A stretch of 64,000 nucleotides of DNA from a bacterium. Its GTDB lineage: Bacteria > Bacillota_I > Bacilli_A > RFN20 > CAG-449. A model generated the notes under the pieces. That model made no database searches. It worked only from the letters and a program-made list of their open reading frames with translations, and was not told the DNA's origin. Numbering within the stretch: position 1 is the first letter of the stretch; each line of letters starts with the position of its first letter. The position numbers and the translations under genes were made by a program. Shown in pieces: positions 13,635-56,829 of the stretch. The stretch is from NCBI GenBank assembly GCA_963623095.1, contig CAVFKD010000001.1, positions 19,204-83,203 on the forward strand. Reading direction: 5' to 3'.

Positions 13635-14630
13635 TTATTCAGCTTTTGGTTCTTCAGCAACTGGAGCTGCTGGAGTTTCAGTTTTTTCAGCTGGTTTAGC
13701 TGCTTTTGGAGAGTACTTTTTAACTGTTACTCTTTTGCCAGAAGCTTTTTTAGCTGCTAATGCATCTTCAATCTTCTTAGCTTTGATTAATTTTAATTCT
13801 TCTTGTTTGTCAAATGAATTTAATGCATCGACCATTGAAACTTCTTCATCTGGTTGTACATTGTAAGCAACTGTTGTTTGGCCACCTTTAGCTTCAACAA
13901 CTGCATCAGCCATTAAACCAACAATTAATTTGATAGCCTTATTTGCGTCATCATTTGATGGAATTGCATAGTCTACTTCATCTGGATCAGCATTTGTATC
14001 GATGATACCGAATACTGGGATACCTAATTTCTTAGCTTCTGCAACTGCGTTGTGTTCTAATTTTGGATCAACTACGAAGATAGCATTTGGAGTTCTTCTC
14101 ATAGCTTTGATACCATCTAAGTTAGCTAATAATTTTTCTTTTTCTTTCTTTAATAAAACAACTTCTTTCTTTGGTAATGATTCGAATGTACCATCAATTT
14201 CCATTGTTTCTAATGAATTTAAATATTTAATTCTCTTTTGGATTGTTTTGAAGTTAGTTAATGTACCGCCTAACCATCTATTTGAAACATAGAATGATCC
14301 TGAACGTAATGCTTCTTCAACAACGATTTCTTTTGCTTGTGGTTTTGTACCAACGAATAATACTTTACCGCCTTCAGCAACGATTTTCTTTAAAGCATGA
14401 TATGCTTCTTGAACTTTTTGAGCAGTTTTTACTAAGTCAATGATATAAATACCATTTCTTGAGCCGTAAATGTATTTGCTCATTTTTGGATTCCATCTTC
14501 TTGTTTGATGTCCGAAGTGGCATCCTGCTTCTAATAATCTTTTTGTAGATACAACTGGTTCGTTTTCATCATGGATAACATTAGCCATAACGCTTTCTTC
14601 AGTTACTACAGTTTCTAATTCTTCACTCAT
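13635..14630 (-). CDS. rpsB: 30S ribosomal protein S2 with short N-terminal and ~60-aa Lys/Ala/Pro-rich C-terminal extensions
   Basis: Core motif [19 protein letters not shown]. 331 aa versus the usual ~250. Strong RBS GGAGG before the first ATG. Confidence 0.9.
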
Positions 14631-52294: not shown

Positions 52295-52437
52295 ATGTTC
52301 ACCTAGTATCATAAAAATTCTTTATTATAATTATTTTTATGATATTCCTTTCTTTAACAAAGAATTATACTATATAAAAATAAAACAAGTTAGTGAAAAT
52401 TAACTATTTTATTAAATATTTGCTACTTAAATATTTC

Positions 52438-52454
52438 TTTAAGTTTAATTTATG
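52438..52454 (+). promoter_or_regulatory. Direct repeat TTTAAG-N5-TTTATG, 17 bp upstream of a TATAAG -10, in the response-regulator promoter
   Basis: Same half-site, spacing and distance to -10 as the boxes preceding sRNA units 1 and 2. Confidence 0.45.
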
Positions 52455-53187: not shown

Positions 53188-54403
53188 GTCTTTAAAAAGA
53201 AAATTCATTTTTATCTCGATGTTATCAATGAGTTTAGTTATTATTATCATTGTCTTTGTTTTAAATATTTCTAATTATTATTCAATCTCAAGAGAATCAG
53301 ATAAAACATTAGATATGTTAATTTATACCAATTGTACATTCCCTAATGAAGAAGAATCTTCTTCTCCTGATCCTGATGAATTCTATAATGATGTCCCTTT
53401 TGAAACAAGATTCTTCTATGTTAAATTTGACCAAGATGACAATGTTATTAAAGTTGATTTAACAAGAACTAGTTATATCAAAGAAAACACTGCAATTGAA
53501 TATGCAAAAGAAGTAAAAGATTATACTTCCAATCGAGGATATTATTCTATTTATCGTTATGCAATCCATGAATACGACAATAATCATACAATGGTACTTT
53601 TTCTTGATTGTCAAAGATTATTATCAGGTTCAAGAACATTACTTATATCTAGTATTATCTACTCTGTAGTTGGACTTATAAGCGTATTTATCTTAATTGT
53701 TTTATTCTCCACTATTGTATTTAAACCTGTTCAAGATTCTTATACAAAGCAAAAACAATTTATCACTAACGCAAACCACGAATTAAAAACACCTTTAACA
53801 ATTATTTCAACAACAACTGATGTTATTGAAATGACATCTGGTAAAAGCGAATGGACACAAGATATTAAACATCAAGTTAGTAAATTAACTGATTTGACCA
53901 ATGAGCTTGTCTTCTTATCAAGAATGGATGAAGAAGGATCTAGTATAAAACGCTTAGATTTCTCTATAAGCGAAGTTTTATTAGATACTATAAAAGAATA
54001 TGAAGTTTCTTTAAAAAAGCGTAATATCGAAGTAAAAGCCTCAATTAATGGCAATGTCACTTATAATGGTGATATGGCTAAAATCAAATCACTATTTGAA
54101 ATATTATTAGATAATATTAATAAATATGCGATTGATAATTCTATTGTAGAAGTATCATTAATAGACAATGATAAAAACAAATTGTATATATCATTCACTA
54201 ATCAAACTGAATCTGTTCCTCAAGGTAATTTAAATGTATTATTTGAAAGATTCTATCGTTTAGATTCAAGTAGAAACTCCTCTTTAGGTGGCCATGGTAT
54301 TGGTTTGAGTATCGCTCAAGCTATTGTCACATTACACAAAGGAACAATCACTTGTAATTCCAAAGATGGAAAAGAAATAAAATTTGAAATAAATTTAAAA
54401 TAA
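53180..54403 (+). CDS. Sensor histidine kinase, 2 TM with ~125-aa extracytoplasmic loop, no HAMP (CiaH-like architecture)
   Basis: H-box HELKTPLT, N/G boxes (LLDNINKYA, GGHGIGLSIA). Overlaps RR stop. Confidence 0.9.
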   Translation: MIKSLKRKFIFISMLSMSLVIIIIVFVLNISNYYSISRESDKTLDMLIYTNCTFPNEEESSSPDPDEFYNDVPFETRFFYVKFDQDDNVIKVDLTRTSYIKENTAIEYAKEVKDYTSNRGYYSIYRYAIHEYDNNHTMVLFLDCQRLLSGSRTLLISSIIYSVVGLISVFILIVLFSTIVFKPVQDSYTKQKQFITNANHELKTPLTIISTTTDVIEMTSGKSEWTQDIKHQVSKLTDLTNELVFLSRMDEEGSSIKRLDFSISEVLLDTIKEYEVSLKKRNIEVKASINGNVTYNGDMAKIKSLFEILLDNINKYAIDNSIVEVSLIDNDKNKLYISFTNQTESVPQGNLNVLFERFYRLDSSRNSSLGGHGIGLSIAQAIVTLHKGTITCNSKDGKEIKFEINLK

Positions 54404-54411
54404 TTTAATAT

Positions 54412-54449
54412 TTTAAGTTACGCTTAAGTTTAATTAAATAATATATACT
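54412..54449 (+). promoter_or_regulatory. Promoter of sRNA unit 1: TTTAAG-ttacg-CTTAAG direct repeat, 15 bp, TATACT -10
   Basis: Read directly. Begins 8 nt after the HK stop codon. Confidence 0.5.
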
Positions 54450-54454
54450 CGTAA

Positions 54455-54575
54455 AAGATGTGATATCTTTTAGAACTTAATATATCTCAAAATAACCTTT
54501 ATGCATGCTTTCATAAGTTCTAAACAATCCCTTAGGTATTACATCTTCACACCCCATCGAAAGATGGGTTTTTAT
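54455..54575 (+). ncRNA. Candidate small RNA, tandem copy 1 (~118 nt): 5'/3' closing helix, internal stem-loop with 33-nt conserved loop, conserved ACAAUCCCUUAGG, intrinsic terminator CCCATC-gaaa-GATGGG+T5
   Basis: No ORF or RBS. Helices AAGAUGU/ACAUCUU and AGAACUUA/UAAGUUCU. Own promoter and terminator. Confidence 0.6.
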
Positions 54576-54607
54576 TTTCAAAAAATATTTTTAAAATTAT
54601 TTTTTTC

Positions 54608-54646
54608 TTTAAGTTTTATTTAAGTAAAACCATTTATAGTTATAAT
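54608..54646 (+). promoter_or_regulatory. Promoter of sRNA unit 2: perfect TTTAAG-tttta-TTTAAG direct repeat, 16 bp, TATAAT -10
   Basis: Read directly. Confidence 0.55.
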
Positions 54647-54651
54647 CGTAA

Positions 54652-54770
54652 AAGATGTGATATCTTTCAAACCTCAATATATCTCAAAATAACCTTTATG
54701 CATGCTTTCATGAGGTTTGAACAATCCCTTAGGTATTACATCTTCTCGCCCATCTCTGATGGGTTTTTTC
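54652..54770 (+). ncRNA. Candidate small RNA, tandem copy 2 (~118 nt). Internal stem is AAACCUCA/UGAGGUUU (fully compensatory relative to copy 1). Terminator is CCCATC-tctg-GATGGG+T6
   Basis: Core identical to copy 1 except both strands of the internal helix changed coordinately. Confidence 0.6.
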
Positions 54771-54831
54771 TTGTTTTTATTTAATTTTTCTACCATATTA
54801 TTCTTAAATATATTATTATAACTAGGCAATA

Positions 54832-54940
54832 GAGATTTCTTTTAGAACTCGATATATCTCAAAATAACCTTTATGCATGCTTAAAGAGTTCTACAATCCC
54901 TTATTGAAATCCTATTGTGCCACCTTCGGGTGGCTTTTTT
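54832..54940 (+). ncRNA. Candidate small RNA, tandem copy 3 (divergent 5' end): closing helix GAUUUC/GAAAUC, internal helix AGAACUC/GAGUUCU, terminator GCCACC-ttcg-GGTGGC+T6
   Basis: Conserved loop (AUAUAUCUCAAAAUAACCUUUAUGCAUGCUU) and ACAAUCCCUUA retained. Both helices altered by compensatory changes. Preceded by a TATAAC -10 but no clear direct repeat. Confidence 0.5.
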
Positions 54941-54973
54941 CATTTAAAAAGGTTCGACTTTCATCGAACCTTA
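54941..54973 (-). terminator. Intrinsic terminator after secreted-protein gene (AAGGTTCGA-ctttca-TCGAACCTT + U-tract on minus)
   Basis: 9-bp perfect stem. TTTTTAAAT follows on minus strand. Confidence 0.7.
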
Positions 54974-54977
54974 GTTT

Positions 54978-56613
54978 TTACCAACAATCATGAACTACAT
55001 AGCTATTATCGACTACTAAAGGATTACCATAATCTTTATAGAATAGATTTCTACTGATAATATTAGTTAATCTATCATAGCATTCCCATTCATAATCACC
55101 ATTTAAATGGATTTGATCCGCTTTTAAGAAGCAAAGATAATAATCAAAGTTCTTATATTGTAAATCGTAATGATCAACTCCTCCATACCATGTATGGTAG
55201 CAATCTACTTTATAAATAGGAGTTCTTGTATAATCACCATTTTGATTATAATAAGTTGCAGTTACTTCTGTATCGTGGTTAAGATATCCCATACCATCCG
55301 CGTATAAGTTACCATTGAATAAACCTGCCGCATTATCGAATAATTCTTGATCTACTGCATAGAATCCAGCTTCTTTTAAATATTTGTTGATTGTATAATC
55401 TTCATCTCCATATGTTGTAATATAATCTTTATAGTCATTCGCGACATATTTAAGAATATTTTGTTCTGGATGATATGCCATACCATAATCTTTATAATCA
55501 CCATTGTATTTTAACGCCGCTCTTAATAAGCCTTGTCTACTATCATCACCAACTCTATCATTAGGATTATATGTTAAAGTTGCCATTCTTGTAGAATATT
55601 GAGTATTAGTTGGAAGATAAGTTGTAATATGATCTTCTTGCATTAATTTTTCTTGTTCATCTAATACTATAAGTTCTTCTTGGAATTTTTTACCAACTGC
55701 ATTGACATATTCAGCCATTGTTTTTAATTGTTGATCATATGTTCCTCTTGCTGCAGGTTTTTCAATATAACGATAATGCATATCGAATTGAGCAAGATTT
55801 ACAGTCGCTAATAACATATTTGTACAATAAGCAATGTAATCTCTTCTATTTTTAATCTTTTGACCTGTCCATTTATCATTTAGACCAATAGTATAATCAT
55901 AATAATAGAAGATATCTTTACTCTTATCTGCTTGGTTAGGATGTAAGATTGTATCCGCAAGTTGAGTTGCATATGTAACTAAAGTTGTTTCAATACCTAA
56001 TCCATTAGCGTTATTTGCTAAAGTATAATCTTTACAAATAGCTTCATATACTGCATATCTTCTTGCTTCTACTTCTTCTTCAGGAATAGTTTCATCAAGT
56101 TCTAACATTGCAAGATCCCATAAGCTTCCGTTTACTTTATCTTTAATATTAAATTGAACATTACTGAACATTTTATAAAGATTTTCATTTAATACTTCTT
56201 CTGCATGATAGATATCTTGTTTCTTTTCAATAATACTTAATTTTTCTTTAATTTCACTTAAAGCATTTTCAATTCTTTCTAGATACTTAATACTTGCATC
56301 TCTAATATCAATACCAAAGCTCTTTAATAAGTTAATAACTAATGTTTTTTCATAGCCTGTAACAATACCATCGACTAATTTACTTCCATCAGTAACTAAT
56401 TTATTAATAATATATTTAGTTGCATCTTCAATTTCACCATCATTAACTTTATTTGTGTTATTTAATAAAGATACTTCGTTAGTTTCTTTTAATGTAACTT
56501 CTTCTGCTTTTACTTGAGTAGCTACATTATTCATCTTATTAGCGTTCATACTAACTCCAACAGTAGCAAGTATCGCTAATAAACCAGTTGTTAATATTTT
56601 TGTCTTTACCATA
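54978..56613 (-). CDS. Hypothetical secreted protein (545 aa): signal peptide, helical/coiled-coil N-half, Tyr/Asp/Asn-rich C-terminal domain
   Basis: Start re-assigned to MVKTKIL... (AAGGAGG 9 nt upstream). Signal peptide LLAILATVGVSMNA. The minus-strand promoter TTGACA-N17-TATTAT is upstream at ~56650-56690. Confidence 0.5.
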
Positions 56614-56769
56614 TTAGTAGCCTCCTTAAGAGTAACATTTATTTGTCTTTTGTAACTCTTACACTCATATAATAACACTTTCACATCCATTGTCAACACT
56701 TTTTAGAAACATTTTTATTATTTTTGTAACTTTTTAAAAAATTCATTATACAAATAAAGACAAAATGCA

Positions 56770-56804
56770 ACAAAAAACCAAGTATCTATCATTAGACACC
56801 TGGT
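56770..56804 (-). terminator. Intrinsic terminator after nifJ (CCAGGUGUCUA-auga-UAGAUACUUGG with two G-U, + U6)
   Basis: 11-bp stem on minus-strand RNA followed by TTTTTTGTT. Confidence 0.65.
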
Positions 56805-56829
56805 TTTATTAGTTTACAAATTTAAATTA

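Follow-up and report, generated by a model that had tools for sequence, protein, structure and literature searches.

Tandem copies of a structured RNA downstream of an ArlR/CovR/CiaR-like two-component system in a narrow Firmicute clade: candidate sensor-controlled small RNAs

A 64,000-nucleotide (nt) stretch of contig CAVFKD010000001.1 (assembly GCA_963623095.1, GTDB lineage CAG-449), hereafter the window, carries three tandem structured RNA units directly downstream of a response regulator-histidine kinase gene pair. We observed repeated units with promoter-like and terminator elements, a common fold, covarying helices, no coding potential, linkage to the sensor system and conservation of a promoter box. 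The units are very probably genuine structured non-coding RNA genes. It is also moderately likely that they constitute sensor-activated, multicopy, trans-acting small RNAs (sRNAs) of a lineage-specific family of ~120-128 nt; if so, they would be transcribed, bound upstream by the regulator, and would act on their targets by base pairing in trans. The clade in question is narrow and uncultured, and consists of PolC-bearing Firmicutes of ~30% GC with two or three tandem RNA genes 3' of an ArlR/CovR/CiaR-like two-component system.

The units lie head to tail on the plus strand after the kinase stop codon (54403), as an earlier sequence-only reading of the window had proposed, and the repetition across window positions 54451-54944 is far beyond chance. 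A 49-nt block is present three times with 92-94% identity at spacings of 197 and 175 nt, ACAATCCCTTA occurs three times exactly, and the 17-mer core AACCTTTATGCATGCTT, with up to three mismatches allowed, matches at the three unit sites only in the 64-kb window. The shared core given in that reading is common to all three units up to ...GCAUGCUU, but the UCAU that follows is found in units 1 and 2 only. Between 54000 and 55400, four terminator-like hairpins followed by T-runs were detected, compared with 0.4 expected, and each unit is closed by a terminator of its own, as claimed (Table 1). The terminators lie ~110-125 nt 3' of each -10, and the estimated transcript is about 120-128 nt instead of the ~115 nt first suggested. 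The general attributes of a structured sRNA gene (a promoter-like element, a Rho-independent terminator, compensated helices and no coding potential) are all present.

The terminator-hairpin scan found no terminator from the kinase stop to 54553, and transcription of the operon must therefore continue into unit 1. The units had been described as stand-alone sRNAs and not leaders; this agrees with their own promoter-like elements and terminators, but unit 1 also lies within the 3' end of the operon transcript. Such an arrangement could be expected if the units were locally duplicated operon 3'-end or insulator elements (stabilising hairpins or stacked terminators) with no function in trans, since the operon transcript must end in unit 1. 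We consider this highly improbable, because each unit has a conserved promoter-like element and a terminator, and because the invariant unpaired sequences and compensating helices described below suggest a sequence-specific function beyond termination.

All copies share one minimum-free-energy shape. An outer helix of 13-14 base pairs (bp) is separated by a 3'-side bulge of 9 nt (CAAUCCCUU) from an 11-bp inner helix, which carries a ~33-nt apical loop, and the hairpin is followed by a short linker and the terminator. The stem sequences quoted in the sequence-only reading are all present as written. It had also taken ACAAUCCCUUA to be single-stranded; CAAUCCCUU indeed forms the bulge between the two helices, but the AGG that follows is paired. 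Pairs were counted over 16 distinct copies obtained from related assemblies, in an alignment guided by the model, since a plain MAFFT alignment misplaced two divergent copies. Standard pairs occupy 98.9% of helix cells. Coordinated double changes, on which the original claim of covariation had been based, were seen in 21 of 30 pairs, compared with 2-5 when partners were slid by 1-3 columns, and none of 500 shuffles matched the observed pairing values, although these shuffle statistics are inflated and tell less in favour of the structure than they seem to, as the alignment is fitted to the model, the copies are few and closely related, and the paralogues share history. Despite these caveats, the covariation is large and is visible by eye both between paralogues and between orthologues.

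The strand and the topology of the RNA are indicated by individual columns of this alignment. The G-U pairs conserved at columns 12/92 and 18/88 would turn into A-C mismatches if the opposite strand were transcribed, which indicates that the plus strand is the one transcribed. The plus strand is also fixed by the T-runs and by the fold z-scores, which are -5.8, -6.6 and -4.2 for units 1, 2 and 3, compared with -2.0 for the minus strand of unit 1. In five copies, column 13, located in the loop of a competing local 5' hairpin, has changed from A-U to U-A together with its distant partner, which favours the long-range outer helix over the local hairpin.

Sequence change is distributed very unevenly over this fold. 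Variable columns make up 43 of 50 in the helices, 6 of 34 in the apical loop (one column at its 5' edge, three at its 3' edge and one 2-nt deletion) and 0 of 9 in the bulge CAAUCCCUU. The kinases, by comparison, show protein differences of up to ~20%, and the sequence between units is largely scrambled. The combination of variable helices and invariant unpaired elements is thus one of selection for the geometry of the helices and for the precise sequences of loop and bulge.

Coding potential was assessed in all copies. The only ATG had been placed within AUGCAUGC; further ATGs are in fact present in the 5' stem and the terminator, while the reported lack of a Shine-Dalgarno sequence at the loop ATG was borne out for plus-strand open reading frames (ORFs). 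In units 1 and 2, the loop ATG opens frames of 12-26 codons that are of unequal length and run into the terminator, and in unit 3 and in third copies elsewhere a stop follows after 3-4 codons. No ORF of at least 10 codons is common to all copies on either strand, and a search of all copies for a conserved small ORF preceded by a ribosome-binding site found none.

The distribution of the RNA family follows that of the sensor system. Kinase homologues with 79-99% identity were found in a handful of metagenome-assembled genomes (MAGs) and metagenome assemblies, and the next relatives are 46% identical. Every copy found belongs to an array that starts a few nt 3' of the kinase stop, and two or three copies are present directly 3' of the same regulator-kinase pair in every assembly with an assembled flank (loci are cited by L numbers; two units in L001, L010, L044 and L045, three in the window, L007 and L042). 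In L041, unit 1 is seen and the contig ends a few nt beyond it. Contigs are broken inside the array in L002, L006, L013/L009 and L040, as would be expected of repeats. Related DNA assemblies derive from runs SRR6460874, SRR19415677, SRR13434513 and SRR19416397 and from ENA assemblies ERZ27279212 and ERZ15610082, and MAGs of the clade species are GCA_963610315.1, GCA_963644825.1 and the CAVJGK and CAVJWU assemblies. A scan for the core pattern in one genome per species (185,579 species) gave true matches in three MAG species only, with 8 of 14 loci being chance matches, and all 18 matches from a core-pattern scan of JGI metagenomes were chance matches in unrelated, mostly GC-rich DNA. A covariance model of the copies detected no further copy in the window and none beside kinase relatives with 45-46% identity. 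Thus, the RNA family is real, occurs in a narrow clade only and is found strictly together with this sensor system.

One copy, at L002 5272-5358, has an inner-helix 5' arm of unit-1 type (AGAACUUA) joined to a 3' arm of third-copy type (UGAGUCUU), and its helix would break. This hybrid most likely results from assembly collapse across the shared core and is not a real non-compensated variant.

Three other interpretations of the array were considered and rejected. The small-peptide reading was discarded since there is no conserved ORF and no Shine-Dalgarno sequence, and the mobile-repeat reading since no copies lie away from the locus. A type III toxin-antitoxin-like repeat array does not fit ~190-nt units with their own promoter and terminator and with no co-oriented gene 3' of them. 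Small peptides (signalling or bacteriocin-like) or mobile miniature repeats are hardly credible explanations overall: the 12-26-codon frames of units 1 and 2 and the frequent breakage of assemblies inside the array, as at repeats, could be cited in their favour, but the frame runs through the terminator, varies in length and shrinks to 3-4 codons in third-copy types, and the stem changes are compensatory at the RNA level.

The -10 hexamers named in the sequence-only reading are present, but a further -10-like hexamer lies 3-6 nt 5' of them (TAATAT, TATAGT). TAATAT and TATAGT are each exactly 10 bp from a conserved direct repeat that precedes units 1 and 2 and that is absent from that reading. 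A similar repeat 5' of the response regulator gene is a candidate autoregulatory operator (Table 1). The published rule for promoters of streptococcal csRNAs specifies TTTAAG-N5-TTTAAG with at most one mismatch per half and both G residues kept, 10 bp to a -10 with at most two mismatches, and a terminator within 250 nt (Marx 2010, PMC3091779). Applied to the window, the rule returns four sites, namely unit 1 (54412), unit 2 (54608), the response regulator promoter (52438) and one inside a 573-amino-acid (aa) ORF, with about one match expected by chance per 64 kb. Units 1 and 2 and the regulator operon therefore show the csRNA-type promoter architecture and unit 3 does not; the units are also intergenic, with a terminator within 250 nt of the -10. 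The match in the 573-aa gene (56262, minus strand, TTTAAG-TGAAA-TTAAAG-N10-TATTAT) is in coding sequence, in the orientation of that gene, and is at chance level.

The exact pattern NTTAAG-N5-NTTAAG occurs at two sites in 64 kb, both of which are sRNA promoters (units 1 and 2). Once a mismatch is permitted, the box pattern is no more frequent than chance predicts for a window this rich in AT. All genomes of the clade keep the boxes at the three promoters with at most one substitution per half-site; the spacers and flanks differ. Among aligned unit-1 promoters, six of seven have TTTAAG-N5-NTTAAG; in L044 the first half is ATTAAG.

The regulator that may bind this box was compared with characterized members of its family. 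Its recognition helix is NVIWTYISYLRKKL. At full length, it is 38% identical to Streptococcus pneumoniae CiaR, the compared sequence of which contains the published helix. Streptococcal CiaR proteins are 80-99% identical to one another with a near-invariant helix, VVEVYVSK[V/I]RKKL (PMC3091779), from which the helix here, VIWTYISYLRKKL, differs at 6 of 13 positions. The solved DNA-binding domain closest to that of the regulator is from Staphylococcus aureus ArlR, followed by CovR, and the JGI annotation calls close relatives of the regulator ArlR. The published ArlR operator was considered as a match to the TTTAAG box and rejected, as it is an inverted repeat with no resemblance (PMC6868441). 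By sequence similarity, the sensor system is placed in the ArlR/CovR/CiaR-like part of the OmpR family; these comparisons do not support CiaR orthology of the regulator, though its predicted operator resembles that of CiaR.

More distant relatives provide a second view of the operator. Regulators with 61-65% identity retain the recognition helix N[VI][VI]WTY[IV]SYLRKKL. In L047 and L004, TTTTTG-TTTCG-TTTTAG-N10-TATAAT (GATAAT in L004) precedes a Cthe_2159-family gene 3' of the kinase, and in L049 TTAAAG-TTCGT-TTTAAG-N9-TATAAT precedes the regulator operon. Since the same helix and the same repeat layout occur together in these relatives, we read the repeat as a phylogenetic footprint of the operator bound by the regulator. 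A neighbouring protein operon would be the output of the sensor system in these relatives, and in the window clade sRNA genes stand at that position.

These observations suggest that units 1 and 2 are probably driven by the adjacent regulator. Alternatively, they could be genuine sRNAs that are not under the adjacent sensor system. The TTTAAG repeats would then serve as AT-rich upstream elements or bind a different regulator, and the proximity to the operon would be fortuitous. This is in line with the retention of loops without a box in unit 3 and in third copies elsewhere, and with the chance-level frequency both of the one-mismatch repeat and, at about one match per 64 kb, of the csRNA promoter rule. 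Nevertheless, it is improbable, because exact boxes are found at sRNA promoters only, the operon of the regulator is itself preceded by a box kept in every genome, the same architecture recurs at neighbouring promoters in distant relatives whose recognition helix is the same, and the array is found only beside this sensor system.

Sensor systems with kinases of 45-46% identity adjoin Cthe_2159-family, VTC and DUF4956 genes, and a similar direct repeat was seen 9-10 bp 5' of a -10 hexamer at L004 5257-5400, L047 4260-4398, and L049 2265-2335 and 4188-4239. The repeat beside these genes may mark the regulon of a widespread Clostridia sensor family. No homology was found between the 573-aa convergent protein of the window and the Cthe_2159 protein beside related sensor systems.

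The circuit that we propose begins with the kinase, which would sense a signal, probably an extracytoplasmic one. The phosphorylated regulator would bind TTTAAG-N5-NTTAAG 10 bp 5' of the -10, in place of a -35, and would activate its own operon as well as units 1 and 2, with the box-less unit 3 expressed in some other way. Each RNA is predicted to form a long interrupted hairpin plus terminator, in which freely covarying helices would act as a scaffold for two unpaired elements that do not vary, namely the C/U/A-rich apical loop of ~33 nt, AUAUAUCUCAAAAUAACCUUUAUGCAUGCUU, and the bulge of 9 nt, CAAUCCCUU. Loop and bulge would pair with purine-rich ribosome-binding regions (e.g. GGGA, AAAGG) and so repress translation. 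The unpaired parts of the RNAs are G-poor, the bulge contains UCCC, and the loop contains CCUUU and CUC motifs. Unpaired UCCC is a documented anti-Shine-Dalgarno seed of RNAIII, RsaE, SprD, FsrA and LhrC (PMC4132741), and multicopy sRNAs of this kind are the output of two further sensor systems in Firmicutes, CiaRH and LisRK (PMC3091779, PMC4132741). By analogy with these systems, the UCCC segment is plausible as a seed, and action by mRNA pairing appears slightly favoured.

Several points weigh against this proposal. The regulator is not demonstrably a CiaR orthologue, and its presumed binding specificity derives from comparative footprinting alone. Unit 3 and the third copies of L009 and L042 lack the box, any conserved promoter sequence and a convincing -35. 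When loop and bulge were compared by RNAduplex with 77 translation-initiation regions in the window, they performed no better than shuffled queries, and exact complementary 8-11-mers in the window are at chance frequency, with two at start sites. Lastly, an invariant loop of 33 nt is far longer than a typical seed, and a protein-binding or other sequence-specific role would fit it at least as well.

Two complements of 8-9 nt overlie ribosome-binding sites in the window and are chance-level leads: AAGGGAUU, complementary to the bulge, at a secreted 5'-nucleotidase-like gene (29519, minus strand), and AGGUUAUUU, complementary to the loop, at a gene for a TMEM164-like membrane protein (23181, plus strand).

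Because the invariant loop is so long, a protein-binding role was kept as a serious rival to mRNA pairing. The structured RNAs would then bind a protein or other ligand through the surface formed by loop and bulge, for example for titration or sensor feedback. The near-invariance of loop and bulge while the helices vary, which is more than seeds usually need, and the lack of a target signal in the window are both consistent with such a role, and the LhrC study considers this possibility for its own multicopy sRNAs as well (PMC4132741). However, the RNAs have no known protein-binding motif (e.g. repeated GGA), a C/U-rich loop and a UCCC bulge are as in base-pairing Firmicute sRNAs, and the array has no linked gene that could encode a partner, so that we regard ligand binding as unlikely. 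A more specific form of this idea, in which the units are a new structured RNA class whose loop and UCCC bulge make up a binding module for a protein or other macromolecule and replace the sensor-driven protein operon of the relatives, is doubtful. If true, a two-component system would in the course of evolution have exchanged its protein-operon output for an effector RNA.

The sRNAs proposed here resemble csRNAs and LhrC in circuit, yet they belong to neither family. As stated in the sequence-only reading, the units match no known family: no Rfam match was obtained at gathering thresholds for the whole window or at E<=10 for 54300-55100, and a search of the available literature library found no paper with the core sequences. 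The csRNAs (cia-dependent small RNAs) of Streptococcus, which are controlled by CiaRH and were reportedly described by Halfmann in 2007, are nevertheless closer in kind than that reading had claimed, since units 1 and 2 have a CiaR-type promoter architecture, with the repeat TTTAAG-N5-TTTAAG 10 bp 5' of the -10 and no -35. Both sets are multicopy intergenic sRNAs (~50-200 nt in the CiaRH system) with their own terminators, both are associated with an OmpR-type response regulator of a two-component system, and both have a C/U-rich unpaired element right after the first stem (AAUCCCUUA here, [A/C]UCCUAAA[A/C] in csRNAs). In contrast, AAUCCCUUA has only AUCC in common with the csRNA element, and the units do not match the Rfam csRNA model even at E<=10. 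The regulator is only ~38% identical to CiaR and is not supported as its orthologue, and the host is not a streptococcus, whereas CiaRH has been reported absent outside Streptococcus. Moreover, the units form a single array continuous with the 3' end of the sensor operon, and each folds into a long, interrupted hairpin whose 33-nt loop is invariant.

A second comparison is offered by LhrC1-5 of Listeria monocytogenes, which are multicopy sRNAs of ~110 nt that depend on an OmpR-type envelope-stress sensor system, LisRK. Several of the lhrC genes lie head to tail, and they are not known to adjoin lisRK. LhrC is G-poor, and its unpaired UCCC pairs with G-rich Shine-Dalgarno regions (Sievers 2014, PMC4132741). 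Three UCCC sites are described for LhrC, in loop A, the linker and the terminator loop (PMC4132741), whereas the units here have one, in the bulge, and their apical and terminator loops (GAAA, UCU, UUCG) have none. The LisR-responsive element lies upstream of -53, with no consensus defined (PMC4132741), whereas the box here abuts the -10. The units do not match the Rfam LhrC model and thus lie outside the LhrC family.

Resemblance to two further systems is weaker. RsaE/RoxS (RF01820) also has an unpaired UCCC-type motif and a Rho-independent terminator, and it is among the three top sub-threshold Rfam matches (unit 3), but at 19.2 bits compared with a gathering threshold of 79 (E=1.5) this is noise. 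Moreover, RsaE/RoxS occurs as one copy, folds differently and is encoded away from its regulator. Qrr1-5 of Vibrio are paralogous sRNAs under one phosphorelay regulator, LuxO, with a conserved seed and a variable remainder, and one copy is located beside the regulator gene. The likeness here is that of several paralogous sRNAs under one phosphorelay regulator, but Qrr RNAs are Gram-negative, Hfq-dependent and subject to sigma-54/NtrC-type activation, with no similarity in sequence or structure to the units. Because there is no Rfam match and the motifs, regulator and host all differ, we set the units apart from the csRNA and LhrC families. They are distinguished by an array joined to the sensor operon at its 3' end, by a promoter of CiaR type in a host other than a streptococcus and by a long apical loop that does not vary. 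The RNAs therefore represent a previously undescribed family, probably within a circuit type that is already known, the sensor-controlled multicopy sRNAs of Firmicutes.

If the proposal is true, this would be a third independent case beside CiaRH-csRNA and LisRK-LhrC, and common to the three would be an ArlR/CiaR-like Firmicute envelope sensor system that signals via a battery of paralogous sRNAs. The CiaR-type promoter architecture would then not be confined to streptococci. With their clean covariation and two invariant unpaired elements, the units offer a convenient model for seed retention under scaffold drift in paralogous sRNAs. They also give a regulatory handle on an uncultured gut lineage, and no current idea is overturned.

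The window is chromosomal DNA of ~30% GC, and its genes, which include PolC, RseP, Dxr, EF-Ts, S2, TopA, PcrA and GatAB, identify the host as a Firmicute. The kinase gene overlaps the response regulator gene. On the 3' side, the array is followed by a convergent gene for a secreted protein with no family match and then by a pyruvate:ferredoxin oxidoreductase gene; a hairpin at the stop of the convergent gene is probably its terminator and marks the end of the array (Table 1).

Table 1 Features of the sRNA array and its sensor locus (window coordinates).
Feature	Position	Strand	Evidence or details
OmpR-family response regulator, 226 aa	52507..53187	+	Pfam Response_reg + Trans_reg_C
Sensor histidine kinase, 407 aa	53180..54403	+	HisKA + HATPase_c
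Direct repeat TTTAAG-TTTAA-TTTATG	52438..52454	+	csRNA promoter rule; 53 nt 5' of response regulator start codon
Direct repeat TTTAAG-TTACG-CTTAAG, unit 1 promoter	54412..54428	+	10 bp 5' of TAATAT (54439-54444)
sRNA unit 1	54451..54578	+	covariance-model match 150.5 bits; fold z-score -5.8; covariation
Unit 1, helices	54455-54479 / 54514-54547	+
Unit 1, apical loop	54480-54513	+
Unit 1, bulge CAAUCCCUU	54525-54533	+
Unit 1, terminator	54553-54568	+
Direct repeat TTTAAG-TTTTA-TTTAAG, unit 2 promoter	54608..54624	+	10 bp 5' of TATAGT (54635-54640), then TATAAT (54641-54646)
sRNA unit 2	54648..54773	+	covariance-model match 143.2 bits; fold z-score -6.6; fold as unit 1
Unit 2, inner helix		+	AAACCUCA/UGAGGUUU
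Unit 2, bulge	54722-54730	+
Unit 2, terminator	54748-54764	+
Unit 3, -10-like TATTAT/TATAAC	54811-54822	+
sRNA unit 3, divergent copy	54825..54944	+	covariance-model match 92.8 bits; fold z-score -4.2; both helices differ, loop and bulge unchanged
Unit 3, bulge	54894-54902	+
Unit 3, terminator	54919-54934	+
Hairpin at stop of 573-aa gene (54978), outside any sRNA	54949-54972		terminator-hairpin scan
Convergent 573-aa ORF	54978-56699	-

The stretch from the array to the pyruvate:ferredoxin oxidoreductase gene is a variable island (window 54978-56829; L042 9561-13120; L045 9561-12784; L009 6892-6966). In the window, L001 and L044 it encodes a secreted protein of 536-573 aa that matches no family, in L045 there is a RelB/Fic pair in addition, L042 contains DUF4417 and small ORFs, and the island of L009 is empty. 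On the other side of the sensor operon, an inverted repeat, AGTTAGTGAAAATTAACTA (arms TAGTTA/TAACTA, 52388-52406), is located between the divergent tldD and regulator genes. Every clade genome retains it amid variable surroundings, and it probably binds a different regulator, for which the TetR-family protein encoded nearby is a possible candidate. Elsewhere in the window, the gene for ribosomal protein S2 (13635-14630, minus strand) encodes 331 aa, which is longer than typical bacterial S2, and shows a sub-threshold match to the NCBIfam 'sunset domain variant' model.

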